From contig NZ_QPID01000006.1 of the NCBI RefSeq assembly GCF_003336225.1, forward strand, positions 104,207 to 168,206: a stretch of DNA of 64,000 nt, in the 5' to 3' direction. The position numbers and the translations under genes were made by a program. This DNA is from Corallincola holothuriorum. GTDB lineage: Bacteria; Pseudomonadota; Gammaproteobacteria; Enterobacterales; Neiellaceae. The notes below the pieces were generated by a model that worked only from the letters and a program-made list of their open reading frames with translations, had not been told where the DNA came from and did not search any database. Positions 30,271-64,000 of the stretch are shown here, piece after piece (the first letter of the stretch is position 1; every line of letters starts with the position of its first letter).

Positions 30271-30915
30271 ATGGATGTTTTCTTAGCGCACCTGATTCAA
30301 TTTCCCACGGTTATTTACACCGTTTTACTCGGTGTCATGCTCTGCTATTGGTTTGTTGCCGCATTGGGCACCGTTGATGTTGACGTATTAGATATCGACA
30401 TTGATGTTGATGCGGATGTCGGCGCCCTAGAAGGTTTTGCCGGATTGCTACTGAGATTGGGGTTGGCGGGTGTGCCTTTAACTGTCGTGCTGACAGTGAT
30501 TGCACTCACAGGTTGGAGTATCTGCTACTTCTCCATGTTGCTGGTGATTAATCCTTTGTTTTCGTTCTCTGGTGTATTGCAGTGGGTATTAGGTGCCGGT
30601 GTAGCCATGGTGGCTTTTGTTGCCTCCATTTTTATCGCCGCGCAAATCGTTAAGCCTCTGCGACCTTTGTTTAAGTCAGCGAATGCGACATCTACCAACG
30701 ATTTGGTGGGTTCAAAAGTAGTTATACGCACCTCAAAAGTGACTCCTACATTTGGCGAAGCCACATTGGAAGATGGTGGCGCGGGCATGGTATTGCGCGT
30801 GCGGGCCGACGAAACTCAAAACTTAACTCGCGGCGATATTGTCGTGATCCTCGAATACCTGCCGGAAACACATGCCTATCGCGTGATGACCGAGGCAGAA
30901 CTGTTTAAGCAATAA
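30271..30915 (+). CDS. YqiJ/NfeD-like inner membrane protein with C-terminal OB-fold domain (flotillin partner)
   Basis: GGAAGGAG Shine-Dalgarno. 4 TM helices, then a soluble beta-rich C-terminus (GSKVVIRTSKV...GDIVVILEY). The architecture and the downstream flotillin mirror E. coli yqiJK. Confidence 0.6.
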   Translation: MDVFLAHLIQFPTVIYTVLLGVMLCYWFVAALGTVDVDVLDIDIDVDADVGALEGFAGLLLRLGLAGVPLTVVLTVIALTGWSICYFSMLLVINPLFSFSGVLQWVLGAGVAMVAFVASIFIAAQIVKPLRPLFKSANATSTNDLVGSKVVIRTSKVTPTFGEATLEDGGAGMVLRVRADETQNLTRGDIVVILEYLPETHAYRVMTEAELFKQ

Positions 30916-30970: not shown

Positions 30971-33031
30971 ATGCCTATAGATATGGGTCTAGCAATGGGT
31001 GTACTTACCATCATCGGTGTTATTTTTGGCGTCATATTCGTACTTGCGATGATGTTTAAAGCGTTTTACGAGAAAGTGCCCCAAGGAACAGCGTTGATTG
31101 TGAATGACATGAGTTCAACGCCAAAGGTGAAGTTCACCGGCGGTATGGTGATCCCCGTTATCCACAAGAAAGAGCTGATGAAGATCTCTTTAATCACTCT
31201 GGAAGTGGATCGAAGAGGACGTGATGGTTTGATCTGCCGCGACAATATGCGTGCGGACATTACCGTGGCTTTCTACCTGCGCGTTAATGAAACCCAGGAA
31301 GATGTATTGAAGGTCGCTAAGGCGATTGGCGTAGAGCGTGCGTCTGACAAAGCGGCGGTGAATGAGTTGTTTAACGCCAAGTTCTCCGAAGCGCTGAAAA
31401 CCGTCGGTAAGCAGATTGAGTTTGTACGTTTGTTTGAAGATCGTCTGACCTTCCGTGAAAAGATTGTTGAGGTGATTGGTGATGATCTTAACGGTTACAT
31501 TCTTGAAGATGTTGCCATCGATTACTTAGAACAAACACCAAAGAGTGCCTTAGATCCTACCAATATTTTGGATGCTCAGGGCATACGAAAAATTACCGAG
31601 CTGACGGCAACTCAGAACGTGCAAACCAACGAGTTTGAGCGTAATGAAGAGTTGGCGATCACCAAGAAAAACGTGGAGACCAAAGAGTCTATGTTGGCGT
31701 TAGAGCGTCAACAAGCGGATGCCGAAGCGCGCCAGGCTCGAGAAATAGCCACGATCCAAGCCCGTGAAGAAGCTGAAACCATTAAGGTCAGTGAAGAGGA
31801 GCGTCTGCGTTCTGAGCAAGCTCGTATTAAGACGCAGCAGGATCTTGATATTCAGGAAGAGAATCGTAAGCGTGAAGTAGAGATTGCGGTCGAAAATCGT
31901 CAGCGTGCCGTAGTGATTGAGAAAGAAAAAGTAACGCGGGCGCAGGATCTGGAAGTGGTCTCCCGCGAGCGTGAAGTTGAGCTTGAGCGTATCGCCAAAG
32001 AAAAAGACCTGGAAGTTGAGCGTACCAATATTGCTAACGTGACCCGTGAGCGTGTGGCAGTAGAGAAAACAGTGGCTGAAGAGGAGGAGCGTATTAAAGA
32101 GGTGCGTGAAATCTCAGAAGCTGACCGCTCTAAGCAGGTGTTGATCTTAGAGGCGCAGGCGCAAGCCGAAGAGGAGCTGGTTAAGCAGGTTAAGCAGGCC
32201 GAAGCCGATGAAACCAAAGCCAAGCATAAAGCCGTTGAACTGAATGTACTGGCGCAAGCTGAACTGGAAGCGGCAGCGAAGAAAGCCGATGCGATGAAAC
32301 GTATGGCTGAAGGTATTGAAGCGGAACGTGCGGCGCCAGGGTTTGCTGATGCCCGTGTGCAGGAAGCAAAAGCAGAAGCACTTGAGAAAGAAGGTGCTGC
32401 TGAAGCACAAGTACTCGCGAAGAAGATGGAAGCTCAGGCCCAAGGTGATGAGCAGCAAGGGTTGGCGAAAGCCCGTGTGATTGAAGCGCAAGCGATTGCC
32501 AAAGAGAAAGAGGGGCTGGCCGAAGCCAAGGTGCTGGAAGAGAAGCTGGGTGCCCAAGCCAAAGGCGACGAACAGCAAGGTCTCGCAGAAGCCGCCGCAG
32601 AAAAAGAGAAAGGTTTGGTGGCTGCCACAGTTATTCGCGAGAAATTGACCGCAGAAGCTGAAGGTTTAGTGGATAAGTTCAAGGCGATGGATGCTATGAG
32701 CGATCAGGCGCGCAGCCACGAAGAGTTCCGTATGCAGCTTGAGAAGCAGTTTGAAGAAGCGATTGCGTCTATCGGCGCGAGCAAAGAGATCGCCAAAGAG
32801 CAGGCTGAAGTTCTGTCTGCTGCGTTGTCGAATGCCAATATCGACATCGTTGGCGGTCAGGGCGAGTTCTTTGATTCGTTCGCCAAGTCTCTGTCTGTTG
32901 GTAAATCAGTTGAAGGGATCGTGGGTAAAAGCCCCGTGGTGCAGGAGCTGTTAAGTAAGGTGATGGCGCTGGGTGGCGGGAAAGGGGGCAAGAAACCTTC
33001 TAGCTCAACCTCATCAACCGATCTGTTGTAA
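30971..33031 (+). CDS. Flotillin / SPFH (band-7) family protein, YqiK-like
   Basis: N-terminal TM helix and SPFH domain (VPQGTALIVN...). Long EA-rich coiled coil with internal flotillin-type repeats (EGLAEAKVLEEKLGAQAKGDEQQGLAEA appears twice). Confidence 0.85.
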   Translation: MPIDMGLAMGVLTIIGVIFGVIFVLAMMFKAFYEKVPQGTALIVNDMSSTPKVKFTGGMVIPVIHKKELMKISLITLEVDRRGRDGLICRDNMRADITVAFYLRVNETQEDVLKVAKAIGVERASDKAAVNELFNAKFSEALKTVGKQIEFVRLFEDRLTFREKIVEVIGDDLNGYILEDVAIDYLEQTPKSALDPTNILDAQGIRKITELTATQNVQTNEFERNEELAITKKNVETKESMLALERQQADAEARQAREIATIQAREEAETIKVSEEERLRSEQARIKTQQDLDIQEENRKREVEIAVENRQRAVVIEKEKVTRAQDLEVVSREREVELERIAKEKDLEVERTNIANVTRERVAVEKTVAEEEERIKEVREISEADRSKQVLILEAQAQAEEELVKQVKQAEADETKAKHKAVELNVLAQAELEAAAKKADAMKRMAEGIEAERAAPGFADARVQEAKAEALEKEGAAEAQVLAKKMEAQAQGDEQQGLAKARVIEAQAIAKEKEGLAEAKVLEEKLGAQAKGDEQQGLAEAAAEKEKGLVAATVIREKLTAEAEGLVDKFKAMDAMSDQARSHEEFRMQLEKQFEEAIASIGASKEIAKEQAEVLSAALSNANIDIVGGQGEFFDSFAKSLSVGKSVEGIVGKSPVVQELLSKVMALGGGKGGKKPSSSTSSTDLL

Positions 33032-33128
33032 GCCCTATGGCAAGCGTCTTTGTGCGGAGTTAAATCCGCATTAGGACGGTCAATATGGCTGGCCAGTTTC
33101 ACCTGACGTCTCAGGAACACATCATGGG

Positions 33129-36100
33129 ATGTCAGGGTGGCCAAACTGTTTCGACAGCACGCAGGGAGTACACAGGGTGCAGGATAAAAACCAAGATAAA
33201 CAAGGCGCTGAAGCCGGTATCGTTGATAAGGCGGTGACTGAAGGTGGCGCTTATGAAGTGATCCGTAAGCGCTTGGAAGGGCAAGGGAAGCAGCTTCGAG
33301 AAGAAGTCGATGCCCTTAACCAGTCACGTATCAGTGAGTTTGGTAGTACCGAAATGAAAGTGCTGGGGCGTTTGCGTACCCGCACGGAAAATAACTGTAT
33401 TGCCCAGGATATCGTCTGCGTTGGCGAACACCTGCTGTTTGGCTTCAACGTGTTTATGGGGCTAAAAAAAGAGACTCACATCAGTGATGTATTTGCCCTC
33501 TATCATTTCCAAAAAACTGCTGATGGCTTTGATTTAGAGCCCGCGCGCAGTGACGATACGTTTTTGGCCAATGCAGCCTTTGTGCGTGAGTTTAATGAAC
33601 TGTACGCCTATTACAAAAATACTCGTTTGTCGCAGCTGGTGGTCAAAGATGGCAAGTTACTAGCCAGCTTCCAGATCGGCGAACGGGAAGAAGATATTCG
33701 TGTGTTTCGTTGGTCGATCAGTGCAGATGGCAAACGTGTAGAGTATATCGACAACCGTGGTGAGCGTGATATCGCCTTGCCATCGGCTTATGATTTTGAA
33801 TGGCAGGCAACCAGTCGTGAGAATGCTGTTCATGGTAAACATCCACACCTGAATATTCTCGATACCCTGTTTGTGGAAACGGTCGGTGGTGATCTGACCG
33901 TTAAGATAGAAGACAACACCGCGTCCGGAGAGGGGATCTACGCCGAAGCTGTGGTGGATCAGACCCAGTCGCTGGATGACGCCGATGTGTTTTATGCCGA
34001 GGTCGGCCACCTGATACTGCTAAAAATCTTGCCTTATCGAGAAGAGACCTGGCGCTACTTGTTATTTAACAAGCTGACCCATGAAGTGTTGCGTGTCGAT
34101 GCTATTGGTCAGGCATGTCGGCTGTTGCCGGAAAATCACGGCATTATTTTCCCTGGCGGCATTTATCTGGAATCAGGCGGGCTTAAACTGTTTGATGAAG
34201 ACATGACTGGCATGCGTTTCCGTCGTGTGCGCCGTTCGCCCAATGGCGAAGATGCCATGTATGTGTTCTACAACCCTGAGAACGCAACGATCGCCTTGTT
34301 TGCGTACAACCTGATTGAGAAAAGCCTGCAGGTGCCGTTACTTGGCCATGGTTACGCCATGCTCGATGATGGCACCATGGTGATTTTCTATGCCGAAGGG
34401 GATGAGCCAACCCGCGTGCATCCGATGCAGGTTTGGGAAACGCCCTATTGCAGTGATGAGCACGCCAGTAAAGCACCGGTGAAAGACAGCGTCTATGGCC
34501 GCATTGGCAATGCTGAATTAGTGCGTGCTATTTCCGATTTTTACAGTGTATGCCGTGCCGTGGATGAGCAATCCGTGTCGGCGCGTTTATATGATGAACT
34601 GTGCAAAAATACCTTGCGCCTGTTTGATAGCTACTACTGGTTGGACAATCAGGAAGTACAGGGGATCTCAGATCTGCTACACGAGATTGCCAAAACCAGT
34701 GAACTGGTGCTGGATGAGTTTGAAAAAGTAGAAAGTATTCGTCAGCAGTCAGAGTTGGCAATGGCTGAGGCGGAACAACAGCAAAAAGCGCTGCTCAAAT
34801 CGATGAATGTCGATAGTTGGCACAGCGCTGAAGCTTTTGTTGATGCCCTCGACAGCATTCGCAAACTGCGCGGTCACTTACTGACGATCCGTGACTACCG
34901 CTATATCAATACCTCACGTATTGATGAGATGGAGCAGCAGCTACAAGAAACCGGTGACAAGATATCACTGAAGACCGGCGAATTTCTCTCTTCAGCTGAA
35001 GCCATTGCCCCCTACCATGATCGTCTAGGGACGCTGGAGCAGGCGCTAGCCGATGCGAATTCGATTGTAGAGCTGGAGGCACCTGTCGCCGGACTCGAAA
35101 AGATGGCTTCAGAGCTGGATCTGCTATCTGAGCTGATGACCAGCCTGAAAGTGGATGACGCACAGCAGCGTACCGCCATTGTTGAGGCGATCTCTGAGGT
35201 TTACGCCAAGTTAAATCAGAGCCGTGCCCGTGCCGGACACAAGCAAAAAGAGCTCGGCTCGGCAGAAGCTGTGGCTGAGTTTTCCGCGTCGTTTAAGTTG
35301 TTTTCTCAAGGTATTACCAATGCCCTGAGTGCGGCCACCACGCCGGAGAAGTGTGATGAGCAGCTGACGCGCTTGCTGGTGCAGCTAGAAGAGCTGGAGA
35401 GCCAGTTCAGTGAGCATGACGAGTTCTTGGCCGATATTCTTTCCAAGCGGGAAGAAGTTTACGAAAGCTTTGAGGCGCAGAAACAAGCGCTACTTGATGA
35501 GCGCCAGCGCAAGGCACAGAACCTGCAGGATGCCGCCAGCCGTATTCTCAGTAACATTCAAAAACGGGTACAGCGTTTCACCGAGCCTGATGAACTGAAC
35601 AGCTTTTATGCCGCCGATCCGCTGGTGATGAAAGTACGGGAGATCAGCGAGCAGTTGCGCGGACTCGATGATCAGGTGAAAGCCGATGATATCGATGCTC
35701 GTTTTAAGATGGGTAAAGATCAGGCGCTGAAATCGCTGCGAGATAAGAGCGAGATCTATGAAGAGGGCGGTAACGTCATCAAGCTGGGACCACGGCACAA
35801 ATTTAGTGTGAATACCCAGCCGCTAGATATCACTATCTTACCGCGTAATAACCAGCTTAATTTCCACCTCACCGGTACCGACTATTTCGAGCCAGTAGAA
35901 GATAAGCGGCTGGCTGAATTGAGCCAATACTGGCAGGCGGATATCGAATCTGAATCTGCTGAGATCTACCGCGCTGAATATCTGGCTGGATTGATCCTCG
36001 ATAGCGCTGATATGCATGAGCATGGCCTTACACCAGAGTTACTAAGCAGCGCTGCCAGTGAGCAAGAGGCGCTGGTTAAGATCGCCAGAGAGTTTGCTGC

Positions 36101-38549
36101 GCCAAGATATAAAGAGGGCTATCAGAAAGGGGTTCATGACCATGATGCTGCGCTGATCCTGGCCAAAGTGTTGCCTTTACGGCAAAGCGTCGGCCTGTTG
36201 CGGTTTGATCCGCTGAGTCGTGGTTTAGCGATTATCTTTTGGGCTAACAATCAGCAACAAGCTTGGGCGAAAAGCTGCCCACAGCGGGCACGCTCGGCAT
36301 TGACTATGCAAACCCTGTTTGCCAGTGGCGAAGCACTCGTTTTACTGGAACAGGAGCTGCTGAGTCAGCTGAATAGCTATCTTGAATTGCATACCATTCC
36401 GGTCAGCCAGAGCGACTGCCAACGTGCGGTGAGCTATTTGGTGCGTGAGCTGGCCAACGACAGGGTGGAGTTTGAAACCAGTAAGTACGCCCGTCAGTTG
36501 GCAGATGAGCTAAAGCAGTCTCTTAAAGCTGGCAAAGCGCTGCGCACATTTGAAGAAGCATTGCAGCAGTTGGTTGGCAAAGCGGGGGAGCGCTGGGCGT
36601 TAACCTACAGCTGGTTAACCGCGATGTTAGCCAGTAAGAAAGCAGGCGCCGCGGATACAGCGGAGGCATTAGCCGCCTACGTTCCTGAAGCCGTGGCGAT
36701 CATTAACGCCGAAGAGAGAGTTTCCCGTCGTCACAGCGAAGCGGATCTTAATTTCAGTGTGGATGGCCTCTTGGGTGAACATAGCCGCATTGACAGTCAG
36801 TCACTGCAGTTGCGCTTGGATAGCTTCCTAACCAACTATCAGCTGCACAGAGATCAGTTTGTGCCGGCCTATCATGAGTACCTCAATACGCGACAGCAGG
36901 TGATCAGCGATCGTCGTAAACAATTAAAGCTGCATGAATTTGTTTCGCGACCACTTAGTTCATTTGTTCGTAACCAGCTGATTAATCAAGTTTACCTACC
37001 AATTATTGGCGATAACTTGGCGAAACAGATGGGCACCGTGGGCGAAAACAAGCGCACCGACTTAATGGGCTTGTTGATGATGATCTCGCCGCCCGGTTAC
37101 GGTAAAACCACGTTGATGGAGTATGTGGCGAACCGGCTGGGTTTGATCTTTATGAAGATCAACTGTCCGTCGCTGGGGCATGAAGTGGATTCATTGGATC
37201 CAACGCAAGCGCCCAACGCTACCGCGAAGCAGGAGCTGGAGAAGCTCAACCTGGCGCTGGAGATGGGCAATAACGTGATGCTGTATCTTGATGATATTCA
37301 GCATACCCACCCCGAGTTCTTGCAGAAATTTATCTCCTTGTGTGACGGTACCCGTCGTATTGAGGGGGTATGGCGTAACGAATCAAAAACCTACGATATG
37401 CGCGGCAAGAAATTCTGTGTGGTGATGGCGGGCAACCCATACACTGAATCCGGCGAAGTGTTTAAGATCCCCGACATGTTGGCGAACCGTGCCGATATCT
37501 ACAACTTAGGTGAGGTGCTTGGCGGCATGGAAGCGCCGTTTGCACTGAGCTATATCGAAAACAGTCTGACCTCGAATCAGGTGCTGCAACCGCTAGCAAC
37601 CCGAGATATGCAGGATCTGTATCGCTTTGCCAAAATGGTAGAAACCGACACCATCAATACCAATGACCTTAGCCATAGTTATAGTGGCGCCGAGGTTAAT
37701 GAGATCCTGGATGTGCTGCGTAAATTGATGGTGGTGCGTGATGTGCTGCTGAAAGTAAACAAGCAATACATCGTTAGTGCCTCCCAGGCGGAAAAATACC
37801 GTACCGAGCCCGCGTTTAAGTTGCAGGGTTCATACCGCAACATGAACAAGATGGCGGAGAAGATCTCGGCGGTGATGAACGACGCCGAGCTAAAACAGGT
37901 GATTGCTGATCATTATCTCGGAGAGGCACAACTACTTACCGGCGGGGCGGAAGAGAACCTATTAAAACTGGGTGAAATGCGCGGCACACATACTGATGCA
38001 GAAGCGGCTCGTTGGCAGCAGATCAAGGCCGACTTTGCCCGTAGTAAAGCGATGGGCGGCGACGATGCCGATACTGGCATGCAGGTGGTTGGACAACTGC
38101 ACGACTTAGTTAGCAGCGTAAAAGGCGCGGCAGAACTGATGGTCAATAAGCCGGAAGTTGCGGATAGCGGTAGCGAGCAAACCTCACAAGCGATCGTTCA
38201 GTTGTCAAAAGAGCTGTCTCAGGCACAACAAGCGGCTAGCGATCGTCATATTGAAGTGGTTGAAGCACAGCACTCGGCATCCCGTGCCAAGTTCAATAAG
38301 TCGGCCCGCGCTTTTCTGACGTTGTCGAAGGTGTTCGCCAAAGCGTTATCCCGTGTTGAAGTGGTGAATCAGCCCATTCCTGGGTTAGAAAATCAGCTGG
38401 CGACGCTAACTCAGAGCTTGCAAACCATTGCTCACTCGTTGGCGCCAGATGATAACGATCAGATCCAGATCTTGTTGCGTAATATTGGCAAGTTGGAGCA
38501 TGAATTAGCCGCGCTTAAAGGCGGTAAGCAGAGTGCAGAGGATGCATGA
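33129..38549 (+). CDS. Giant multidomain protein (1806 aa) with a C-terminal-proximal AAA+ ATPase module; function unknown
   Basis: Approximate architecture: aa 1-480 beta-rich, 480-1300 alpha-helical, ~1320-1480 AAA+, then a ~300 aa helical tail. Walker A ISPPGYGKTT, Walker B VMLYLDDIQH, sensor-1 VVMAGNPY and RADIY are contiguous, which is AAA+ and not an SMC/ABC layout. An alternative in-frame GTG start at 33177 follows an AGGGAG Shine-Dalgarno. Confidence 0.7.
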   Translation: MSGWPNCFDSTQGVHRVQDKNQDKQGAEAGIVDKAVTEGGAYEVIRKRLEGQGKQLREEVDALNQSRISEFGSTEMKVLGRLRTRTENNCIAQDIVCVGEHLLFGFNVFMGLKKETHISDVFALYHFQKTADGFDLEPARSDDTFLANAAFVREFNELYAYYKNTRLSQLVVKDGKLLASFQIGEREEDIRVFRWSISADGKRVEYIDNRGERDIALPSAYDFEWQATSRENAVHGKHPHLNILDTLFVETVGGDLTVKIEDNTASGEGIYAEAVVDQTQSLDDADVFYAEVGHLILLKILPYREETWRYLLFNKLTHEVLRVDAIGQACRLLPENHGIIFPGGIYLESGGLKLFDEDMTGMRFRRVRRSPNGEDAMYVFYNPENATIALFAYNLIEKSLQVPLLGHGYAMLDDGTMVIFYAEGDEPTRVHPMQVWETPYCSDEHASKAPVKDSVYGRIGNAELVRAISDFYSVCRAVDEQSVSARLYDELCKNTLRLFDSYYWLDNQEVQGISDLLHEIAKTSELVLDEFEKVESIRQQSELAMAEAEQQQKALLKSMNVDSWHSAEAFVDALDSIRKLRGHLLTIRDYRYINTSRIDEMEQQLQETGDKISLKTGEFLSSAEAIAPYHDRLGTLEQALADANSIVELEAPVAGLEKMASELDLLSELMTSLKVDDAQQRTAIVEAISEVYAKLNQSRARAGHKQKELGSAEAVAEFSASFKLFSQGITNALSAATTPEKCDEQLTRLLVQLEELESQFSEHDEFLADILSKREEVYESFEAQKQALLDERQRKAQNLQDAASRILSNIQKRVQRFTEPDELNSFYAADPLVMKVREISEQLRGLDDQVKADDIDARFKMGKDQALKSLRDKSEIYEEGGNVIKLGPRHKFSVNTQPLDITILPRNNQLNFHLTGTDYFEPVEDKRLAELSQYWQADIESESAEIYRAEYLAGLILDSADMHEHGLTPELLSSAASEQEALVKIAREFAAPRYKEGYQKGVHDHDAALILAKVLPLRQSVGLLRFDPLSRGLAIIFWANNQQQAWAKSCPQRARSALTMQTLFASGEALVLLEQELLSQLNSYLELHTIPVSQSDCQRAVSYLVRELANDRVEFETSKYARQLADELKQSLKAGKALRTFEEALQQLVGKAGERWALTYSWLTAMLASKKAGAADTAEALAAYVPEAVAIINAEERVSRRHSEADLNFSVDGLLGEHSRIDSQSLQLRLDSFLTNYQLHRDQFVPAYHEYLNTRQQVISDRRKQLKLHEFVSRPLSSFVRNQLINQVYLPIIGDNLAKQMGTVGENKRTDLMGLLMMISPPGYGKTTLMEYVANRLGLIFMKINCPSLGHEVDSLDPTQAPNATAKQELEKLNLALEMGNNVMLYLDDIQHTHPEFLQKFISLCDGTRRIEGVWRNESKTYDMRGKKFCVVMAGNPYTESGEVFKIPDMLANRADIYNLGEVLGGMEAPFALSYIENSLTSNQVLQPLATRDMQDLYRFAKMVETDTINTNDLSHSYSGAEVNEILDVLRKLMVVRDVLLKVNKQYIVSASQAEKYRTEPAFKLQGSYRNMNKMAEKISAVMNDAELKQVIADHYLGEAQLLTGGAEENLLKLGEMRGTHTDAEAARWQQIKADFARSKAMGGDDADTGMQVVGQLHDLVSSVKGAAELMVNKPEVADSGSEQTSQAIVQLSKELSQAQQAASDRHIEVVEAQHSASRAKFNKSARAFLTLSKVFAKALSRVEVVNQPIPGLENQLATLTQSLQTIAHSLAPDDNDQIQILLRNIGKLEHELAALKGGKQSAEDA

Positions 38550-39250
38550 TGAGTGAGTTAAGCGTATTAGAAAAACAACTGATTGATAGCTTCGATGATC
38601 TTAAGCTCAGTGACAGTGAGCGGGCGGAGCTGAAGGAGCTTGCTCGACCATTAAGCGCAGATAAAGTGAGATTTATTCGCAACAAAGCGTTTGCTATTGC
38701 CCGTGACAAAATTGCTACGGCTAGTGGAGATGATAATGCTGCTGAAGCGTTGTCGGCGCTTGGTTGGCTGGAGCGGGTGGTGAAAACCCTTGATCAGGCC
38801 ACGCGCAAACAAGCGATCACCTCGGGAGCTTATTTCAGCCCAGGCACGGCTTGCATGAAGAAGATCGTTGACCTTTGTCACCAAGCCAAGCGCAACATTG
38901 ATATCTGTGTCTTTACTATCTCAGATGATCGCCTCAGCGCTGCGATTAAGAAAGCCCATGATCGCGGCGTGCAGGTGCGGATCATCACGGATAATGATAA
39001 AGCCAATGACAGTGGCAGTGATGTTGACCAGTTAGCCAGACAAGGGGTGCCGTTGCGTATGGATCGCACTGAATACCATATGCACCACAAGTTTGCGTTA
39101 TTTGACCGCGTAACCTTGCTTAACGGCAGTTTTAACTGGACCCGCAGCGCGACAGATAAGAACGAAGAGAACATTTTGGTGACGGACAGTGAAACGCTAT
39201 GTGCTTCCTATCTGGAACAGTTTGAGCGTTTGTGGCAGAAGTTCGCCTAA
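38546..39250 (+). CDS. Phospholipase D-family nuclease (single HKD motif, Nuc/Zucchini-like)
   Basis: Single HxKx4D...N motif (HMHHKFALFDRVTLLNGSFNWTRSA) in a ~150 aa PLD core after a ~90 aa helical N-terminal extension. Its ATG overlaps the TGA of the giant gene (ATGA). Confidence 0.8.
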   Translation: MMSELSVLEKQLIDSFDDLKLSDSERAELKELARPLSADKVRFIRNKAFAIARDKIATASGDDNAAEALSALGWLERVVKTLDQATRKQAITSGAYFSPGTACMKKIVDLCHQAKRNIDICVFTISDDRLSAAIKKAHDRGVQVRIITDNDKANDSGSDVDQLARQGVPLRMDRTEYHMHHKFALFDRVTLLNGSFNWTRSATDKNEENILVTDSETLCASYLEQFERLWQKFA

Positions 39251-42912: not shown

Positions 42913-45900
42913 CTAATGAGCATCCTGTTTATTGGCAAAGCTTACTTTGCCAAAGTCATCCAATACTGAATAAAAGGCCGGCACCATAAACAATACCAGT
43001 GCTGTTGAAGCGAAGATGCCAAAGACCACAGATATCACTAGGGGCTTGAGCACTTGCGCTTGCAAGCTCGTCTCCAGCATCAGTGGCAACATCCCTGCGG
43101 CAGTGGTCATCGAGGTGATAAAGACCGCGCGAAAACGCTCACGACTGGCCTGTACCACGGCTTCATGCACGCTATCCCCCTCTTCGACGTGATGGCGAAT
43201 GTATTGCACCAGCAGGATAGAGTCGTTCACCACGATCCCTGCCAGGGATACAAAGCCCATCACTGATGGCATAGACAAGCTATAGCCGAGTAGCAGGTGC
43301 CCCCAAAGCACACCAATTAAAGCTAAAGGGATCGCAACCATGACGGTGACGGGTTCCAAATAGCTTTTGAACTGCAGGCTTAATATCGCAAAGACGCCAA
43401 AGAGACCGAGCAAGAAGCCTTTGCCCATGGAGCTTCCGGTCTTGGCGCTTTCTTTAACTTCTCCTTCGAACTCTATACGCAGTCCTGGATGCTTCGCCAG
43501 CAGTTGTGGCATCAGCTCGTTGCGGAACAACTGCAGTACCTCGTTGGTGTTGGCCTGGCTGACATCGACATCGCCCAGCACACTGATTGTTCGCAGGCCA
43601 TCTATCCGTTCAATACGGACAAACCCGCGTTGAAAGGCTATCTCGGCCAGTGAAGCAAGTGGCACCTGTTTGTCGCCGACATTAATAGGAAAGTTGAGAA
43701 GATTGCTTAGCTTAGCCGCATCAGCTTTGGCCAGCTTAACGTCGATCTGGATATTTTCTGGCCCCACTTGGATCTCATCAGCGGTTTGATGGAAATAGGC
43801 GCCGCGCAGCTGGCTGGCGAGCATCTGACCATCGATACCATACACCTCTGCACCGGGACGCAAGGTGACTAATATTTCCTCTTTACCGGGGCGCATGGTA
43901 TCGAGCAAACCGTAAACCCCCTGAAAATTCGATAGGTATTGTTGGACCTCGGTGGAGACCTGCTTAAGCAGATATAGATCGTCATGCCGTATGCGAATTT
44001 CGATGGCGCGTCCCGCGGGCCCCATCTCTGGTTGTTTAAATACCATAGACAAGGGGGCGGCTAACTCGCCGGTCTCTTCACGCCATTGGCGAATGAACTC
44101 GTGTATTGATCCCTGGCGTAGTTCCGCGCTTAGCAGATCCAAGCGGACGGTGGCGACATGTGGGCCTGTCTCTTTCGCATCGTTATTGAAATTGAATTTT
44201 TCAGTCAGGTGTTGCACATAGCTTTGGTCCACTTCCTCGGCAGAAAAGCGTTCATCTACTTTTTCTGCCGCCGCGACGATCTTTTCTACCACGGTTTTTG
44301 TTTCCATCAGCGTTGCGCCGGGTGGCAGTACCACGCGCGCTTCGACGATATCGCCATCAAGTTCTGGAAACCCGATAAATTTCACCGCGCCGCCAGCCAC
44401 CAAGGAGAGCGAGAGTAAAAATAGGGCGATGATCGCGCCCAAGAAGCCGTAGCGCCATTTAACAACCCACTCAACGGCGTTGACCAACTGGTTGTTTCTA
44501 AACGCTTCAAAGTGCTGATGGAACCAAGCGCGGATCCCTCTTGGCGCATCGCCGTCACTGTTCTTGCTGAGCGCATGGGACAGGTGATTAGGCAGGATCA
44601 AAAATGCTTCCAATAAACTGATTGTCAGGATCAGTAGCAGTGTTAAGGGAACGACTTTTAGAACATTGCCCATCTGACCATCAAGAAACAGCAGAGATGA
44701 GAAGATAAATACCGTGGTTAAAAACGATGACAGTACGCCCGGTGCAACCTTTTTAACGCCCGCGACAATGGCTTCAGAACGCTCCATACCGCGTTCTACA
44801 TGGGAAGCGATTGACTCCGCTATCACAATGGCATCATCCATCATGATGCCGATCGCCATGAGAAAAGCGACCAGCGTCATCACGTTAATCGACAGACCAA
44901 ACAATGGCATCATTGCTACGGCCGCTAAGAAGGCAACGGGTAAGCCCATGGCGACCCAAAATGAGTAGCGAAGGCTGAAGAACAGCCACATGGTTAGGAA
45001 AACCAGGAACACCCCCTGCAAACCGTTTTTGATCATCATACTCAGACGATCTGAGACCAGTGAAGACATGTCGTTGGTGGTTTGTAGCGTCACGCCTGCG
45101 GGCAGGTTAGGGCGTATTTCATCAAGCAGTCGCAGCAAGTCTTCTTTGACTTTGAGTACGTCCTCCTCTTTGTTTTTACTGATGGACAAGATGGCGGCCG
45201 GTTTGCCATCAAACAGCACATGCTCTTCGTCCAGCTCAAAGCGATCCGTGAGCACGGCAACATCGCCGAGCCTGACGATACCGCCATCGGTATTTGAACT
45301 GATCACTGTTTCTGCCAATGCCGCAGGGGTGACCTTTTGTTCATCAAAACGGATCAGCAGGTTCTTGTCGTGGGTCTCTATAGTGCCGGAGGGCAGGCGC
45401 ACGTTTTGCCGACGTAATTTGTCGGCAATATCACCGACTGATAAGCCGAGACGACGTATATCTGTCAGCGACAGTTCCACCAATATTTGATGATCAGAGA
45501 AGCCATTGATGGTGACCAGTTTAACGCCCGCTTCAAGTTTGATACGGCGCTTCAGTTGTTCGGCATAAGCCTTTAGCTCCGACGCTGGTAGATCTGCGAC
45601 TAGAGCGACATCCATGACCGGTTTGGTACGGGACAACTCGGTGACGACCGGTGGCTCAGCTTCATCGGGAAAGTCTTTCACCGCATTAATCTGAGTCTGT
45701 ACATCGAGCAACATGCGGCTGATATCTGTGCCGCTATTGAGCTTTAGGGTCAGGGTGGCCATCCCTTCCACGGCTTCACAACGCACTTCTTCGATATCTG
45801 ATAGACCATCAACGGCATCTTCCATTCGCTGACACAGGTTTTCTTCGGCGTCCTGAGGCGCCGCACCCGGTTGCACTATCTGTGCTTGCACAAAATCAGA

Positions 45901-46017
45901 TTCGAATTCTGGAAAGGTCTCCCGTTTGATCGTTGGGATCACCATTAAGCCAACCAAAATCATCGACAACATCAATAGGTTGGCAGCGGTTGGGTGCCGC
46001 GTAAAATAGTTGATCAC
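42913..46017 (-). CDS. RND efflux pump, inner-membrane permease (AcrB/HAE1 family)
   Basis: 1034 aa, 12 TM helices with two large periplasmic loops. Typical AcrB N-terminus (MINYFTRHPTAANLLMLSMILVG). Confidence 0.9.
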   Translation of the reverse strand: MINYFTRHPTAANLLMLSMILVGLMVIPTIKRETFPEFESDFVQAQIVQPGAAPQDAEENLCQRMEDAVDGLSDIEEVRCEAVEGMATLTLKLNSGTDISRMLLDVQTQINAVKDFPDEAEPPVVTELSRTKPVMDVALVADLPASELKAYAEQLKRRIKLEAGVKLVTINGFSDHQILVELSLTDIRRLGLSVGDIADKLRRQNVRLPSGTIETHDKNLLIRFDEQKVTPAALAETVISSNTDGGIVRLGDVAVLTDRFELDEEHVLFDGKPAAILSISKNKEEDVLKVKEDLLRLLDEIRPNLPAGVTLQTTNDMSSLVSDRLSMMIKNGLQGVFLVFLTMWLFFSLRYSFWVAMGLPVAFLAAVAMMPLFGLSINVMTLVAFLMAIGIMMDDAIVIAESIASHVERGMERSEAIVAGVKKVAPGVLSSFLTTVFIFSSLLFLDGQMGNVLKVVPLTLLLILTISLLEAFLILPNHLSHALSKNSDGDAPRGIRAWFHQHFEAFRNNQLVNAVEWVVKWRYGFLGAIIALFLLSLSLVAGGAVKFIGFPELDGDIVEARVVLPPGATLMETKTVVEKIVAAAEKVDERFSAEEVDQSYVQHLTEKFNFNNDAKETGPHVATVRLDLLSAELRQGSIHEFIRQWREETGELAAPLSMVFKQPEMGPAGRAIEIRIRHDDLYLLKQVSTEVQQYLSNFQGVYGLLDTMRPGKEEILVTLRPGAEVYGIDGQMLASQLRGAYFHQTADEIQVGPENIQIDVKLAKADAAKLSNLLNFPINVGDKQVPLASLAEIAFQRGFVRIERIDGLRTISVLGDVDVSQANTNEVLQLFRNELMPQLLAKHPGLRIEFEGEVKESAKTGSSMGKGFLLGLFGVFAILSLQFKSYLEPVTVMVAIPLALIGVLWGHLLLGYSLSMPSVMGFVSLAGIVVNDSILLVQYIRHHVEEGDSVHEAVVQASRERFRAVFITSMTTAAGMLPLMLETSLQAQVLKPLVISVVFGIFASTALVLFMVPAFYSVLDDFGKVSFANKQDAH

Positions 46018-47336
46018 GGCTGAACCTCGGTGTTGATTACTTTCAGTGCCATGCCAGCCACCGCGGGCATTAGATCTGTGGTGATCACGCGATCACCCGG
46101 CGAAAGTTCGGCGGTAATGGCCACTGACTGACCGTTGAAGAACAGCATTTTTGCTGGAATGATCTGTAACTGATCGTTGTTATCCAGCAGATATATCTGA
46201 TTACCGTGTAGTGCTTTTAGTGGTAATAGCCAATGGGCTTTAGGCTTGCCCTTAATTTCTGCACGGAGAAACATGCCGTTGACCAGCGGCGGTTTAACAG
46301 CGGGCTCAATCTCTTGCCAATTTTGTTCAACTTCCAGAAAGATACCGACCGTGGCTTGGCTGGGATCAACCGTGTCACTGATCCGGTCAACGCTGGCGGG
46401 CCAACGATAGTTAAAATCGAATCCTTCCAGGATTAGCTCGGCAGTCATTCCCAGTTCAGAGACTTGTGGCATGCCATTGTCCAGTGGCTTGAAGTTCAAA
46501 CTCCGTACCAGCGTTCGCATATCGTGAATAGATACTTGCGCATTCACGTTCATCAGCTGCATACCATGGGCGCTGACCATCACTTGCTGACTATTAACAA
46601 CTTGGTCCAATTCGACGTCAACTTCTGCGATCCTGCCTCGAAAGGGCAGTACTACCTCGGTTTTATCCAGTTTGCGTTTGGCATCATCAACTCTGGCGCT
46701 GGCTTGGCGGAGTTGTGCTTGCAACAGTTCCTCTTCGTTAGGCATCAGCTTTAACTGGTTTTCCAGTTCTTGCACTTTTTGCTGCTGTTGCAGTAGGTTT
46801 TGCGCTTCAAGATCCAGCTCAGACTGGGACACTAGGTTTTTATTCTTTAGCTGTTTTTTCCGGGTAAGCTCTTGTTTGGACAGCGCCAGACGATCATGCT
46901 CGATTTGCAAAGACAGCGCTAAGTTTTGCCGTTCTAAGGTTTTCCCTTCGAGTTGTACTTCAATGGCGCGATGGTCAGCTTCGGCCTCTGCCAGGCTGAT
47001 CTCATAATCAGTGCGGTCGATACGCAGCAGCGTGCTACCTGCTGGTAGGGTTTTGCCCTTATACATGTCTGGGTTGCGGTAAACCACACGGCCGCTCACT
47101 TCGGCAACTGCTTGCCATATCTGCTTCGGCTCGACACGACCGAAGCCCTCAATGGTTGGCGCAATCAGCTGTTGTTTGACGACCAGTATGTCGACTGCCG
47201 CAGCGTTCTCTGTGGAAGGTGAAAGTGCTGGTTTGCCTTTTAGCGCGATGATGACAATAAGAGCCAGTAAACCAGCCCCTACACCGTAGACAAATAGGCG
47301 CTTTTTCGGCGTGAGGGAGTTAAGCTGAAAGCCCAT
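46014..47336 (-). CDS. RND efflux periplasmic adaptor (membrane fusion protein, HlyD/AcrA family)
   Basis: N-terminal TM anchor, coiled-coil hairpin, and beta-barrel domains. Overlaps the permease start. Confidence 0.8.
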   Translation of the reverse strand: MGFQLNSLTPKKRLFVYGVGAGLLALIVIIALKGKPALSPSTENAAAVDILVVKQQLIAPTIEGFGRVEPKQIWQAVAEVSGRVVYRNPDMYKGKTLPAGSTLLRIDRTDYEISLAEAEADHRAIEVQLEGKTLERQNLALSLQIEHDRLALSKQELTRKKQLKNKNLVSQSELDLEAQNLLQQQQKVQELENQLKLMPNEEELLQAQLRQASARVDDAKRKLDKTEVVLPFRGRIAEVDVELDQVVNSQQVMVSAHGMQLMNVNAQVSIHDMRTLVRSLNFKPLDNGMPQVSELGMTAELILEGFDFNYRWPASVDRISDTVDPSQATVGIFLEVEQNWQEIEPAVKPPLVNGMFLRAEIKGKPKAHWLLPLKALHGNQIYLLDNNDQLQIIPAKMLFFNGQSVAITAELSPGDRVITTDLMPAVAGMALKVINTEVQP

Positions 47337-47979
47337 GTTTTAACAGTTCCTTATTATGTTTCGCTAAACGTTGTAGGAAATTAGTATCTAACTTGATGCC
47401 CTGCATCTGCATGATGGCCGGTGGCATTAGGAATGGAAATACCATCAGACTGATAAGGGACATACGGATCAGTTTAGGATCAAGATCTGGCTTAAGATCC
47501 GCTTTACTCATGCTGGCATCTATCTTCCGGTCGAAGGTGTCATTGATATGGGTAAACAGGCGCTGGATGATCTGTCGGGAAGGATCATCTTCCGGCAATG
47601 ACATTGCCCGCTGCACCAGTTTCGGAAATGCCGGCAGCGGCGCCATTGTTTCGTAATAGCCGCTGATAATATCGCCCAGCCCATCGACGCTACTATTATT
47701 CACAAACCGTTCCAACTGTGCCGTCATCTGATCGATGAACTGGCGACAGACTGCTTCGAATAAGCCTGCTTTGTTAGCAAAATAGTAGCGGATCATACCT
47801 ATGTTGGAGTCTGCTCGGGTCGCGATGGCACGAGTGCTGACTTTTTCGTAAGGCAGCGACGTAAATAGTTGCGCCGCAGCATCAATTAGCCGCTGTCGGA
47901 CGCGGCTATCTTCACTTGGTCGTCCAACCATGGAGCGTTTCCTTGTTAATCGGGTGATTAATATCTTAGACCGCGCCAT
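47320..47979 (-). CDS. TetR/AcrR-family transcriptional regulator
   Basis: N-terminal HTH (ALFTSLPYEKVSTRAIATRADSNIGMIRYYF). Its 3' end overlaps the adaptor gene start. Confidence 0.8.
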   Translation of the reverse strand: MARSKILITRLTRKRSMVGRPSEDSRVRQRLIDAAAQLFTSLPYEKVSTRAIATRADSNIGMIRYYFANKAGLFEAVCRQFIDQMTAQLERFVNNSSVDGLGDIISGYYETMAPLPAFPKLVQRAMSLPEDDPSRQIIQRLFTHINDTFDRKIDASMSKADLKPDLDPKLIRMSLISLMVFPFLMPPAIMQMQGIKLDTNFLQRLAKHNKELLKHGLSA

Positions 47980-60424: not shown

Positions 60425-62473
60425 TTAAGCCTCCTGCACGGGCTGTGATTGTGGTTGAGGTCCAGCGTAAACTAAGCAGCCTTTGTCTAGCACCAGCACT
60501 TTGTCTGCATGTTTTATTAACTCTGGATCATGGCTGCTAAATAAGACGGTATGACGCCCTTTTAGTTGTTCAAGGGTGTGCACAAATTGCCGCCTTGCGC
60601 GAGGGTTTTGATTGGCTATCGGCTCATCGAGAAGCAGCAATGGTGAGCGTTTTAATAGTGCTCTAGCTAAGCTAATATAACTGCCTTCAATCGCAGTTAA
60701 CGTGCTGTAGCCTTGTTCGAATAGATCTTGATTTAGGCTGCCACCTAGAGTGTCTAAAAGAGTGGCGGCGCCTGCTTCTAGCAGTGCTTGCTGTAACTCT
60801 TCTTCTGTGGCTTCGGGACGTGAAATTCTTAAGTTATCAGCTAACGTTCCAGGGAACAGATCTGGTTGTGCAGGCGCATACCCAGCCCAGTGTCTGAAGT
60901 TGGTCGGATCGTACTGGGTTAGATTCCTGTCATTGATCGTTATAAAACCTGATTGTGGTTCGATAACGCCAAGAGCAGCCTGTAACAATGTTGATTTACC
61001 AGCTTGATTTGGTCCGATAACAACTGCCACTTCACCGGGGCATATTTCGAAATCAATACTCGATAAGACTGGCTCTTGCGTTGCGCTGAATCGCAGTGTG
61101 ACATGCTGAAATTTCAATGACGGGGGACCCGAACTGTCTGGGATCTCTAGTCGTAATTCATTATTTTCAGTTTTCACTTTCATGAAGTTATCAAACTGTT
61201 GTGAAGCACTTTTCAGCATGGCCATTTTGGGTAATGATGCGAAAGCGAGCTGGGCAGGGCCGGTGATCCGCCAAATCAACATCGTGCTGGCTATCAATGC
61301 GCCAGCCGTAATACTTTGATCTAATACTAGAAATATACCTGTAAATACCGTAACCAAGGCCGTCATCAGGCTTAGTCCGTGGCTAACAGCTTGGTTTAGG
61401 CCATTTCTTTTTGCATAGGCAAAGTTTTGTTGACAGTTGATACGAGTTTGGCGAATAAACCTCTCAATCCAACCACTGTAATTACCACTGGTTTTTAGCG
61501 CGAGTAGTTGCTTGGTTAGTTCGTTAATAGAGTTCTGATGTTTAGTCGATAGCGTAGGGGAGGCTCGTTGAGCATATTTTTGCAGTCCGCGAGCTATTAG
61601 ATAGTACAATCCGAGCATACCGACAGGCACAACAACTAACCAACCACTCAATAAGACGATGGTAAACAGCGCGATCAACGTGAAAGGGATATCAATTAAA
61701 CCAGCGCCTCCGGGACCGGAAAACAGCATTCGAACACGCTCTGCATTTCTCAATCTGGCAATGTGATTGGATATCCCGACACGGCCTAATACCATTAGCG
61801 GCATATGTAATAAGCGGCTAAATGTCATGTCAGAAAGATCACGTGCCATACGGTTACTGACAGAACAAAGAATGGCTGCGCGTACAATGCGACAGACAAC
61901 GAGTATCGCCAGTGCCAGTATGGCCCCCATTGCGATCCCTGGTAGTTCTGCGGGTGCCTGACCACCAATAACTTTGTCGTACACAGCCATAGTAAACAGG
62001 GGGACTGTTAATCCGGTAATACTTGCAAGGAGGCTTAACCAAAATACAGGGCGGTACCATTTTCGGCGTTTATCTAGCTCTTGGGTAAATCTACTCTGTT
62101 CTCCTCTTTGCCCTGGCAGATGTTCAATTAACACCATATGGGCGCCAGCCATTGAGGTGATATTGGTTAATGGTTGCCATGTCTGGTCGGCAGCCAATTG
62201 CTCTAAACGCTCATCCTTTCGCCGCGCGACAAACGCTTGTGAGTCACTTGGAATAACCACGAACGGGTGTATCGCACACATCATCTTTTTGTGGTCTGCA
62301 GGCAACACTGAAAAATCTATATCGTACCTGTCTAATTGACGATTAAATCCAATAGTATCCAAAAAATGGAGTTGAGGATCTGTGGCTATTTTATTGGCTT
62401 GAGCATACATACCTAGCTGTTGAAATAAACCGACCAATGACTGGTGTAAGTCAGAATGTTGAGTATTCATCAT
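60425..62473 (-). CDS. Type I secretion ABC transporter subunit with N-terminal C39-like domain: canonical Walker A but degenerate signature
   Basis: The likely start is the ATG at 62473 (MMNTQHS), overlapping the upstream TGA as ATGA; the track starts further upstream at 62536. Walker A GPNQAGKST, Walker B LLLLDEP, H-loop SSHD. IEGSY replaces LSGGQ. Confidence 0.8.
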   Translation of the reverse strand: MMNTQHSDLHQSLVGLFQQLGMYAQANKIATDPQLHFLDTIGFNRQLDRYDIDFSVLPADHKKMMCAIHPFVVIPSDSQAFVARRKDERLEQLAADQTWQPLTNITSMAGAHMVLIEHLPGQRGEQSRFTQELDKRRKWYRPVFWLSLLASITGLTVPLFTMAVYDKVIGGQAPAELPGIAMGAILALAILVVCRIVRAAILCSVSNRMARDLSDMTFSRLLHMPLMVLGRVGISNHIARLRNAERVRMLFSGPGGAGLIDIPFTLIALFTIVLLSGWLVVVPVGMLGLYYLIARGLQKYAQRASPTLSTKHQNSINELTKQLLALKTSGNYSGWIERFIRQTRINCQQNFAYAKRNGLNQAVSHGLSLMTALVTVFTGIFLVLDQSITAGALIASTMLIWRITGPAQLAFASLPKMAMLKSASQQFDNFMKVKTENNELRLEIPDSSGPPSLKFQHVTLRFSATQEPVLSSIDFEICPGEVAVVIGPNQAGKSTLLQAALGVIEPQSGFITINDRNLTQYDPTNFRHWAGYAPAQPDLFPGTLADNLRISRPEATEEELQQALLEAGAATLLDTLGGSLNQDLFEQGYSTLTAIEGSYISLARALLKRSPLLLLDEPIANQNPRARRQFVHTLEQLKGRHTVLFSSHDPELIKHADKVLVLDKGCLVYAGPQPQSQPVQEA

Positions 62474-64000
62474 GCTCCCTCCTGTTGGGACAAATGAGCA
62501 TGACCTGAGGAGCCAATTTCGATCTGAGCATCGCATTGGACGATCAGTGATGGGTTGTGGCTGCTTGCAACAATCGTCATTTCTGGCGTCATCTGTTTTA
62601 AGAGCGTCACTAATCTATTTTGGCCATCGATATCCAACGACACTAGTGGCTCGTCCAGTAGTAATAACGAAGGCTTTTGTACCAATGCTCGAACCATGGC
62701 GATTAGCTTTATCGCGCCTTGGCTTAGACGAGTATCCGCGCCTTCTCCGACGGGTGTTTGATAACCATTATTTAACCTTGAAATGGTGGTGGTTAGGCCT
62801 AAGTCATCCGCTAGTTTCATTGCTTCTGGTGCCAGTTCTGGATTGAACATGGTCATGTTGTCGATTAACGAGCCATCAAATAGTGGGGGCCAGCTGCTAA
62901 CGTAAAGTACCGACTGAGAAAACTCATTTTGGTTGTGATGGTACTGGGGTATTTCGTTGAAGTAGATATCTCCTTCACAGGGTTTTTGCAAGCCACCTAT
63001 CGTCGTTAGTAACAGACTCGCGTGGGTAAGGGGGTCTGAACGCACGACGGTTAGTCTATTTGCAGGGATAGTGAGTGATACATGGTCCAGATGAGCACAT
63101 ACCCTTTTTGCTGATAGTTGACAGAGCTTAATGAACGGAGCGGGTAGTTTTGCCTGATAGGTATGTGTACCTGTGAAGTGACTACTGGGTAAGTTAACGA
63201 TCGTATCGACGCTCGTCATGGCTGATTTCGCTGCAACCAAACGTGAACGAAGGCTAATGATTGCACTGAGAGGAGCAACTGCTCGACCAGCTAATATCGA
63301 ACACGCTGCGAGACCACCTGACGTCAATTCACCATTAAGCACTGCTAAGCACCCAACTAACACTAACAGTAAGGTTGTGCCTTGTGATGCACCTTGAATG
63401 ATTTCTTGCAAGCGAGAAGCGAGCCAGTCTACCTGCTGTTGTTGTGCTAACCGTTGATGATTTAATTCGCGATACTTACTTGCGAGTTTGGTTTCCAAAG
63501 CCAGTGCTTTCGCCGTGCTAATTCCAATTAACACATGCATCAACATGCGTGTCCGTTGGCTATCACTTAATGCTACAGTATTTGTTACTTGATAGAGCTT
63601 CTTACCAAGTAACCAAACAATTAGCCCCACCACCAACCATACCGCTAGCGGAATAAAAACAAGTACGCCACCGATATAGGCTACAAGCACGAGAAAAATA
63701 ACTACAAATGGAAAATCCATGATGGCTAGCGCTGCTTGTCCAGAATAGAGATCTCTTACCGTGGCAATGCTCGAAAGTCCGCTAAAGATTCTCCCTGTAC
63801 CTAATTGCTCGATCTGTTGGTAATCGGCATCCATTAACGCTTGCGATGTATTTATGGTGGCAGACAGTTCAAAGTGACTTGCTGAAGCGGCAAGTACCCA
63901 ACTTCGAGCGAATCGAAGTAGGGTTTCCAACAGGATCGCAATGGCCACACTAACCACCAGTACTGTTGCTGTACCTAAGCTTTGGTTGGGAAGAATGCGA
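62470..64000 (-). CDS. Second ABC half-transporter of the T1SS (5' end beyond the window): degenerate Walker A, near-consensus signature
   Basis: TM domain, then an NBD lacking GxxGxGK(S/T) (VVRSDPLTHASLLLTTIGG) but retaining LSQGA, Walker B LLLLDEP and H-loop SSHN. The frame is open through 64000. Confidence 0.7.
   Translation of the reverse strand, partial: RILPNQSLGTATVLVVSVAIAILLETLLRFARSWVLAASASHFELSATINTSQALMDADYQQIEQLGTGRIFSGLSSIATVRDLYSGQAALAIMDFPFVVIFLVLVAYIGGVLVFIPLAVWLVVGLIVWLLGKKLYQVTNTVALSDSQRTRMLMHVLIGISTAKALALETKLASKYRELNHQRLAQQQQVDWLASRLQEIIQGASQGTTLLLVLVGCLAVLNGELTSGGLAACSILAGRAVAPLSAIISLRSRLVAAKSAMTSVDTIVNLPSSHFTGTHTYQAKLPAPFIKLCQLSAKRVCAHLDHVSLTIPANRLTVVRSDPLTHASLLLTTIGGLQKPCEGDIYFNEIPQYHHNQNEFSQSVLYVSSWPPLFDGSLIDNMTMFNPELAPEAMKLADDLGLTTTISRLNNGYQTPVGEGADTRLSQGAIKLIAMVRALVQKPSLLLLDEPLVSLDIDGQNRLVTLLKQMTPEMTIVASSHNPSLIVQCDAQIEIGSSGHAHLSQQEGA

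Follow-up and report, generated by a model that had tools for sequence, protein, structure and literature searches.

The ATP-binding cassette (ABC) exporters of type I secretion systems (T1SS) are regarded as homodimers in which the two ATP sites are equivalent, and threading models of the HlyB type assume as much. How, then, is a locus to be understood that encodes two dissimilar ABC half-transporters, each degenerate in a different part of its ATP-binding machinery? Such a locus lies at the end of a 64,000-nucleotide stretch of Corallincola holothuriorum DNA (assembly GCF_003336225.1, contig NZ_QPID01000006.1, positions 104,207 to 168,206), hereafter the window, in whose numbering coordinates are given. 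It consists of four genes arranged head to tail on the minus strand, which encode, in this order, two ABC proteins (ABC1 and ABC2), a HlyD adaptor and a giant adhesin. The analysis reported here makes it probable that ABC1 and ABC2 are an obligate heterodimeric exporter with one complete ATP site, which would secrete the adjacent adhesin by type I secretion.

Both ABC proteins have ABC_membrane and ABC_tran matches in Pfam, and they are only 23% identical to each other. ABC2 (60425-62473, minus strand) has 682 residues, matches a C. holothuriorum protein at 100% identity and is composed of a C39-like domain, a transmembrane domain (TMD) and a nucleotide-binding domain (NBD) with an intact cis-acting ATPase core. 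The motifs of this core, like all motif coordinates given below, were checked by translation and placed by alignment to HlyB and PrtD (HMMER) and to RtxB and RtxE of Vibrio vulnificus (MAFFT). Walker A reads GPNQAGKST (60989-61015), the canonical motif already recognized in the initial annotation of this DNA, the A-loop residue is aromatic, Walker B reads LLLLDEP (60620-60640) and the H-loop His lies at 60530-60532. The signature and the D-loop are degenerate. The equivalent of the signature is LTAIE (60686-60700), a register set by the HMMER and MAFFT alignments and by its constant distance of 24 residues from the Walker B Asp; the IEGSY initially put in this place (60677-60691) lies three residues downstream and was thus misaligned, although the point it was meant to make, that both signature glycines are gone, stands. 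The D-loop reads IANQNP (60602-60619; ANRNP in orthologs), to be compared with SALD.

ABC1 (62470-64000, minus strand) is a half-transporter with a TMD and a degenerate NBD, and is devoid of an N-terminal C39-like domain. Its frame, open from 63999 and running past the end of the window, is represented there by residues 46-554 of 554 and ends with a TGA at 62472-62470. Opposite the GRSGSGKST of HlyB it has RSDPLTHAS (63016-63042), with neither a Gly-rich loop nor a Lys, and the alignment reveals neither an aromatic A-loop residue nor a Q-loop Gln. In the predicted structures, the strand-to-helix loop at the P-loop position spans six residues in ABC2 (487-492) and merely two in ABC1 (367-368), which is therefore without a phosphate-binding loop. 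The signature is retained as LSQGA (62713-62727; the family consensus is LNKGA), aligned to the LSGGQ of HlyB, PrtD and RtxB, and so are a Walker B identical to that of ABC2 (LLLLDEP, 62647-62667), an SLD D-loop (62632-62640) and the H-loop His (62559-62557). The earlier description of an upstream protein that has lost Walker A and kept LSQGA, and of Walker B and H-loop His in both proteins, is therefore accurate for this genome.

The same division runs through the family. In a census of 95 ABC1 and 75 ABC2 orthologs, GK[ST] was found in none of the former versus all of the latter, the Walker A G, G and K being kept in 75/75 ABC2 sequences together with the aromatic A-loop residue, the Walker B Asp (its Glu in 68/75) and the H-loop His. 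LSGGQ was absent from all 75, the signature being L[ST]A[VI]E (typically LSAVE), and the Q-loop Gln position is occupied by Glu or Asn in most of them. Among the ABC1 orthologs, the Gly in the fourth position of the signature is invariant (95/95) and the D-loop nearly so (S 88/95, L 94/95 and D 95/95); no aromatic A-loop residue and no Q-loop Gln were found in any of the 95, while Walker B (D 81/95, E 86/95) and the H-loop (His 35/95, Tyr 50/95) are relaxed. Every motif of one site is thus kept and every motif of the other is lost or drifting, which points to a composite site formed head to tail by the two subunits. We infer that the complete site would consist of the A-loop, Walker A, Walker B Asp-Glu and H-loop of ABC2 together with the LSQGA and SLD D-loop of ABC1, while the other, made of the P-loop-less pocket of ABC1 and the LTAIE/ANQN of ABC2, would most likely be unable to bind ATP.

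Judged by these motifs, neither homodimer would be complete, since an ABC1 pair would have no P-loop and an ABC2 pair no usable signature. This bears on the alternative that the transporter is an ABC2 homodimer and that ABC1 is a non-catalytic accessory protein, scaffold or regulator, which does not pair with ABC2 NBD to NBD. All the cis-acting catalytic motifs and the sole C39-like domain do lie in ABC2, ABC1 is by its sequence unable to bind ATP, and the HlyB/D structures 7sgr and 8dck, with six HlyB chains per entry, leave room for non-equivalent positions. However, an ABC2 homodimer would place LTAIE/LSAVE, without signature glycines, opposite each Walker A, next to a decayed D-loop, and the most strictly conserved elements of ABC1 are precisely those that act in trans on the Walker A of a partner, namely the signature Gly and SLD. 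Together with the natural fusions described below, in which the two halves follow each other as they usually do in full-length ABC exporters and the Walker A of the N-terminal half co-varies with the signature of the C-terminal half, this makes the alternative unlikely.

These fusions came to light in an exhaustive ABC1 profile search of 1.84 billion cluster representatives, the best 150 of which were inspected. Twenty-three of these 150 are single proteins of ~1,260-1,440 residues in which an N-terminal ABC1-like half is joined to an ABC2-like half by a linker equivalent to the C39-like domain. They include proteins from Azospirillum and from metagenome-assembled genomes of Rhodospirillales and Magnetococcales; on plasmid pAB510c of Azospirillum sp. 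B510 a 1,363-residue fusion (contig L033, 9664-13755) is encoded directly upstream of a HlyD gene and divergently from the gene of a giant immunoglobulin-like protein. To our knowledge, no class of full-length ABC exporter fused in this way has been described in connection with T1SS. Within the 23 fusions, many of which have Arg in place of the Walker A Lys in the N-terminal half, presence of this Lys co-varies with the signature Gly of the C-terminal half ([[9,4],[1,9]], Fisher p=0.0097) and with the Walker B Glu of its own half (p=0.002), and shows no covariation with the signature Gly of its own half (p=0.43). Such a pattern is to be expected of a head-to-tail composite site. The initial proposal of two coupled half-transporters with complementary degenerate motifs is thus supported by the ortholog census, by an intact ABC1 (see below) and by the fusions.

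The wider family also suggests how this state may have been reached. Distant split pairs, at 25-33% identity, are found on contigs L035 and L036 and on a V. europaeus plasmid (L032), in each case as genes for an ABC1-like protein, an ABC2-like protein and HlyD adjoined by that of a giant cadherin/VCBS protein. The ABC1-like subunits encoded on L035 and L036 retain Walker A and the Q-loop, the catalytic Asp-Glu is replaced (FDNA or FDDA) and both signatures are of the [LM]PxG type. G....GK[ST] is matched by 73 of the 125 ABC1-like representatives that are single proteins, but not by the other 52. Members of the family thus form a series from pairs with both Walker A motifs intact, through loss of the catalytic Glu and replacement of Lys by Arg, to complete loss of the P-loop, and the clade comprising Corallincola, Shewanella and Vibrio stands at the extreme end of site decay.

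Could decay be all there is to ABC1? The protein might be a duplicate that is turning into a pseudogene, its complementarity with ABC2 being coincidental, and the relaxed Walker B Glu and H-loop His of its orthologs, as well as an NBD that evolves faster than that of ABC2 (mean identity 62% versus 71%), would be in line with this. An outright pseudogene, with a frame broken beyond the window, can be excluded because the gene is complete on a Corallincola luteus contig (L029, 10001-11665), where it is preceded by a 198-nucleotide intergenic gap and encodes an uninterrupted protein of 554 residues (P0001) from which the part of ABC1 in the window differs at 2 of 509 residues. Looking beyond position 64000 on this related contig thus showed the upstream subunit to be whole, and the orthologs are intact in every genome examined, at 43-60% identity across several gammaproteobacterial genera. 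Across 22 genomes, mean pairwise identity is 75% in the ABC1 TMD and 62% in its NBD, to be set beside 78% and 71% in ABC2 and 77% in HlyD, values that suggest purifying selection on ABC1 rather than decay, and at 23% identity the two proteins are an old pair and no recent duplicate. Moreover, the degenerate motifs are themselves conserved: the Walker A replacement follows the pattern xS[ND]P[LM][TS][HY]AS among the 95 orthologs, and 93 of these have a Trp just after the Q-loop Gln position (residues 411-419, window ~62878-62904, minus strand). This conservation suggests that the dead site of ABC1 is under selection for something and does not drift freely, and a decaying duplicate is accordingly among the least credible of the explanations considered.

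The predicted structures agree with the two proteins being exporter subunits of HlyB type. The AlphaFold2 model of ABC1 (pLDDT 84.4) has HlyB as its top match by TM-score in the PDB (8dck_B, 0.83) and scores 0.80-0.83 against HlyB and PrtD, without an N-terminal domain, HlyB being also the best match of ABC1 by sequence (E=1e-32). The model of ABC2 (pLDDT 85.6) again has HlyB as its top match (8dck_A, 0.80 over 682 columns); it aligns along its full length with this chain, which bears the C39-like domain of HlyB. The corresponding domain of ABC2 (62099-62473, minus strand, approximately residues 1-125) is the least conserved part of the protein (mean identity 44%), G21, P70 and W99 being invariant among 34 orthologs. 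No Pfam match to Peptidase_C39 was obtained even at E<=1, so that the C39-like domain of ~150 residues proposed in the initial annotation is upheld, with a somewhat smaller extent, by the structural alignment and not by Pfam. Since none of the 34 orthologs reveals a conserved Cys or His in the first 125 residues, the domain is predicted to be non-catalytic, as in HlyB.

The four genes are closely spaced. The ABC2 start codon (62473-62471) shares an ATGA with the ABC1 stop, an overlap (62473-62470) that is read directly from the sequence, as had been stated, and a Shine-Dalgarno-like AGGAGGGAG precedes it at 62483-62475, the whole coupling site occupying 62470-62483 on the minus strand. In other loci the junction between the two genes is also tight, ranging from a 4-nucleotide overlap to an 11-nucleotide gap. 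ABC2 is followed by the gene of a 441-residue HlyD-family T1SS periplasmic adaptor, or membrane fusion protein (60421-59096, minus strand; TIGR01843, 401 bits versus a cutoff of 209), and this in turn by that of the adhesin and presumed substrate (59087-49932, minus strand), a protein of 3,051 residues made of VCBS, cadherin-like and Big_9 repeats. Its repeat stretches comprise 15 VCBS, 17 Cadherin_4 and 16 Big_9 matches, and Cadherin_5 is present as well. The last ~150 residues of the adhesin are acidic and of low complexity, and its N-terminus is highly charged and without a signal-peptide-like segment.

This gene order is conserved. In a scan of one genome per species, ABC2 orthologs with 49-59% identity came up at 21 loci (17 in Shewanella, two in Vibrio and one each in Agarivorans and Glaciecola), and in 24/24 loci, that is these 21 together with Corallincola and two contigs of Shewanella oneidensis MR-1, ABC1 lies directly upstream and HlyD directly downstream of ABC2, with HlyD orthologs 58-67% identical. 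The pair as such occurs in Shewanella (including MR-1), Vibrio, Aliivibrio, Agarivorans, Colwellia and Psychromonas. Genes of giant repeat proteins lie beside the ABC1-ABC2-HlyD units of MR-1, V. europaeus, Azospirillum (where the ABC proteins are fused), L035 and L036. In MR-1 the same four-gene unit encodes proteins of 549, 694, 441 and 5,020 residues, the transporter genes presumably being SO_4146-4148, and the last gene, of a cadherin/VCBS protein, adjoins that of an octaheme cytochrome. This protein is SO4149, which is distinct from bpfA (SO4317), has been noted as a second LapA-like protein and has only a minor effect on biofilm formation when lost (PMC4523816). The Shewanella relative is thus not the bpfA locus, to which the initial annotation had pointed: in MR-1 the counterpart adjoins SO4149.

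Upstream of the transporter genes, on the opposite strand, Corallincola and MR-1 both have a gene for an EAL phosphodiesterase with a CSS motif (L029, 3862-5418, ~4.6 kb from ABC1; L030, 8235-9737). No gene for LapG or LapD was found in 10 kb of the C. luteus contig past the end of the window, or among the genes downstream of the adhesin to ~31000, and the EAL gene hints at a control of the adhesin system linked to cyclic di-GMP (c-di-GMP) without LapD or LapG.

Several points weigh against a one-site heterodimer that secretes this adhesin. The complete site is itself non-canonical, with LSQGA or LNKGA instead of LSGGQ in ABC1 and mostly Glu or Asn at the Q-loop Gln position of ABC2, and its catalytic competence is therefore assumed; the initial idea of one consensus and one degenerate site survives as one complete and one degenerate site, the former falling short of full consensus. 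In ABC1 the Walker B Asp-Glu is present, as is the H-loop His in this genome, although a fully dead site would need neither. The covariation test was made on 23 related sequences, without correction for shared ancestry. As for the substrate, the adhesin has no HemolysinCabind (RTX nonapeptide) match and no known T1SS C-terminal domain, and no TolC-type gene was identified among the annotated genes adjacent to the operon, so that the substrate is assigned by synteny alone.

Motifs and their conservation, folds, synteny, fusions and covariation are observations, and it is from these that the complex, its single-site cycle and the identity of the substrate are inferred. If ABC1 and ABC2 do pair in this way, the following scheme can be proposed. 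The two proteins would form a dimer in the inner membrane, and HlyD and a TolC-type channel encoded elsewhere would complete the conduit. Transport would be driven by a single ATP hydrolysed on ABC2 in each cycle; ABC1 would provide the other half of the membrane channel, as well as the half of the catalytic site that acts in trans. Only ABC2 would present a C39-like substrate-docking domain to the unfolded substrate, and the opposite, nucleotide-free interface would probably be a fixed contact. Whether the P-loop-less pocket of ABC1 has been repurposed rather than being merely dead is a further question, to which we would give a positive answer only as a speculative outside chance. In that case, it could serve as a permanent nucleotide-free latch between the NBDs, making of the exporter a constant-contact, single-stroke motor for polypeptides of 3,000 to >6,000 residues, or it could be a site for a regulatory ligand (c-di-GMP or the C-terminal signal of the substrate) that gates adhesin export.

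What would follow from this? In this widespread and conserved family the dimer appears to work with a single ATP site and a single C39-like domain, next to a partner subunit unable to bind nucleotide. This one-site, two-subunit T1SS is apparently a conserved and undescribed variant of type I secretion, no description of such an asymmetry in T1SS having been found in the open-access papers and bioRxiv preprints searched. If the scheme is true, one ATP site suffices for the secretion of adhesins of several thousand residues, structural work gains a naturally asymmetric T1SS in which each subunit position is distinguishable, and a single family offers an evolutionary series from an intact Walker A pair through loss of Glu and replacement of Lys by Arg to loss of the P-loop. 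Should the pocket have been repurposed, the split and fused members together would be a natural series bearing on the role of the second ATP site in protein-translocating exporters. There is also a problem of annotation, as ABC1 is named generically and the pair falls below the cutoff of every curated T1SS subfamily.

Two other regions of the window deserve mention. On the plus strand, at 30971-39250, a same-strand run of genes encodes a 686-residue protein without Pfam match, a 1,806-residue DUF3686/DUF7902/AAA ATPase and a phospholipase D (PLD)-like nuclease, the ATPase stop and the nuclease start overlapping. The nuclease has weak PADLOC matches to the defence models DrmC, MkoB, MkoC and DpdK (best E=2e-11), and the three proteins upstream of it, including one of 214 residues at 30271-30915, have no PADLOC match; the run may be an uncharacterised defence island. 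On the minus strand, at 42913-47979, a TetR regulator, a HlyD_3-type adaptor and an AcrB-family resistance-nodulation-division (RND) pump make up an efflux operon ~2 kb downstream of the adhesin. This operon is unrelated to the T1SS and, being tripartite, would share any TolC-type channel.

How does the locus compare with known systems? Its closest structural relatives are the T1SS exporters of HlyB/PrtD type (PDB 8dck, 7sgr and 5l22), whose fold both subunits share (TM-scores of 0.80-0.83 to HlyB and 0.80 to PrtD). As in these systems there is a HlyD adaptor, the gene of which lies directly downstream of ABC2, and ABC2 has in common with HlyB an N-terminal non-catalytic C39-like domain. However, HlyB and PrtD are homodimers encoded by one gene and have two consensus sites, unlike the two genes with 23% identical products found here. 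In terms of curated NCBIfam thresholds the best model was LssB (TIGR03375), with 273 bits for ABC1 and 322 for ABC2 versus a cutoff of 693, and both proteins are below the cutoffs of the PrtD and HlyB models. The LapB/LapC/LapE-LapA and BpfA/AggABC systems resemble the locus in that a giant repeat adhesin adjoins its own T1SS. They have, however, a single ABC gene where two are found here, and in the Corallincola adhesin no RTX repeats were detected. Tandem ABC genes are also found with BapP in Pseudoalteromonas tunicata; these were judged unrelated, since a separate LolD-like ATPase is involved and the system has been likened to AcrAB/MacAB (PMC12153261).

Two ABC proteins, a HlyD-type adaptor and a very large substrate are found together in the MARTX T1SS of Vibrio (RtxB, RtxD, RtxE and TolC), in which RtxB and RtxE are both required and have been proposed to form a heterodimer (PMC3034196; PMC4316617). 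Likewise, loci of the NHLP-bacteriocin type have two ABC genes and a HlyD-type adaptor, one of the ABC proteins with a C39 domain and the other without (PMC6959600). It might be argued from these similarities that the locus is but a member of one of these classes and that there is nothing new in it. Direct comparison makes this very improbable. RtxB and RtxE of V. vulnificus (plasmid pC4602-2) share 43% identity with each other but only 23-25% with ABC1 and ABC2, and both have the canonical motifs (Walker A GxxGxGKS, signature LSGGQ, Asp-Glu in Walker B and the H-loop His), as the Corallincola pair does not. The MARTX gene order is B-D-E, divergent from rtxHCA, as against ABC1-ABC2-HlyD-adhesin. 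Group 2 transporters are the group with a C39-like domain. In a published phylogeny RtxB and RtxE both fall into that clade (PMC4316617). ABC1 has no such domain. The sequence comparison thus rules out identity with RtxB/RtxE, and an NHLP-type pair (TIGR03796/TIGR03797) is ruled out by scores of 58-141 bits with the NHLM_micro_ABC1/ABC2 models versus cutoffs of 853 and 709. Finally, the neighbouring substrate is a giant adhesin and neither a MARTX toxin nor a leader-peptide bacteriocin.

The most instructive comparison is with the asymmetric exporters TM287/288, TmrAB, TAP1/2, BmrCD and LmrCD, to whose structures the models have TM-scores of ~0.7-0.8 and which also consist of two half-transporters, encoded by adjacent genes, with split deviations. 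In heterodimeric exporters that have been characterised, Walker A persists in the degenerate site, which binds ATP. The deviations are shared out between the two NBDs, leaving one composite site consensus and the other degenerate; they usually concern the signature and Walker B, where Glu is replaced by Asp, and changes in Walker A are rare, Lys being replaced by Arg in ABCG5/G8 and by Cys in Pdr5 (PMC7756269). TM287/288-type exporters thus keep Walker A and lose the catalytic Glu, whereas in ABC1 the P-loop, the A-loop and the Q-loop Gln are lost and Asp-Glu is kept, and their classic pattern is met within the family only in the distant relatives on L035 and L036. The likeness to TM287/288 or TmrAB drawn in the initial annotation therefore holds in the functional sense of one complete and one degenerate site, and is reversed with respect to which motif has been lost. 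Furthermore, exporters of TM287/288 type transport small molecules or peptides, whereas the pair described here belongs to a tripartite system for protein secretion.

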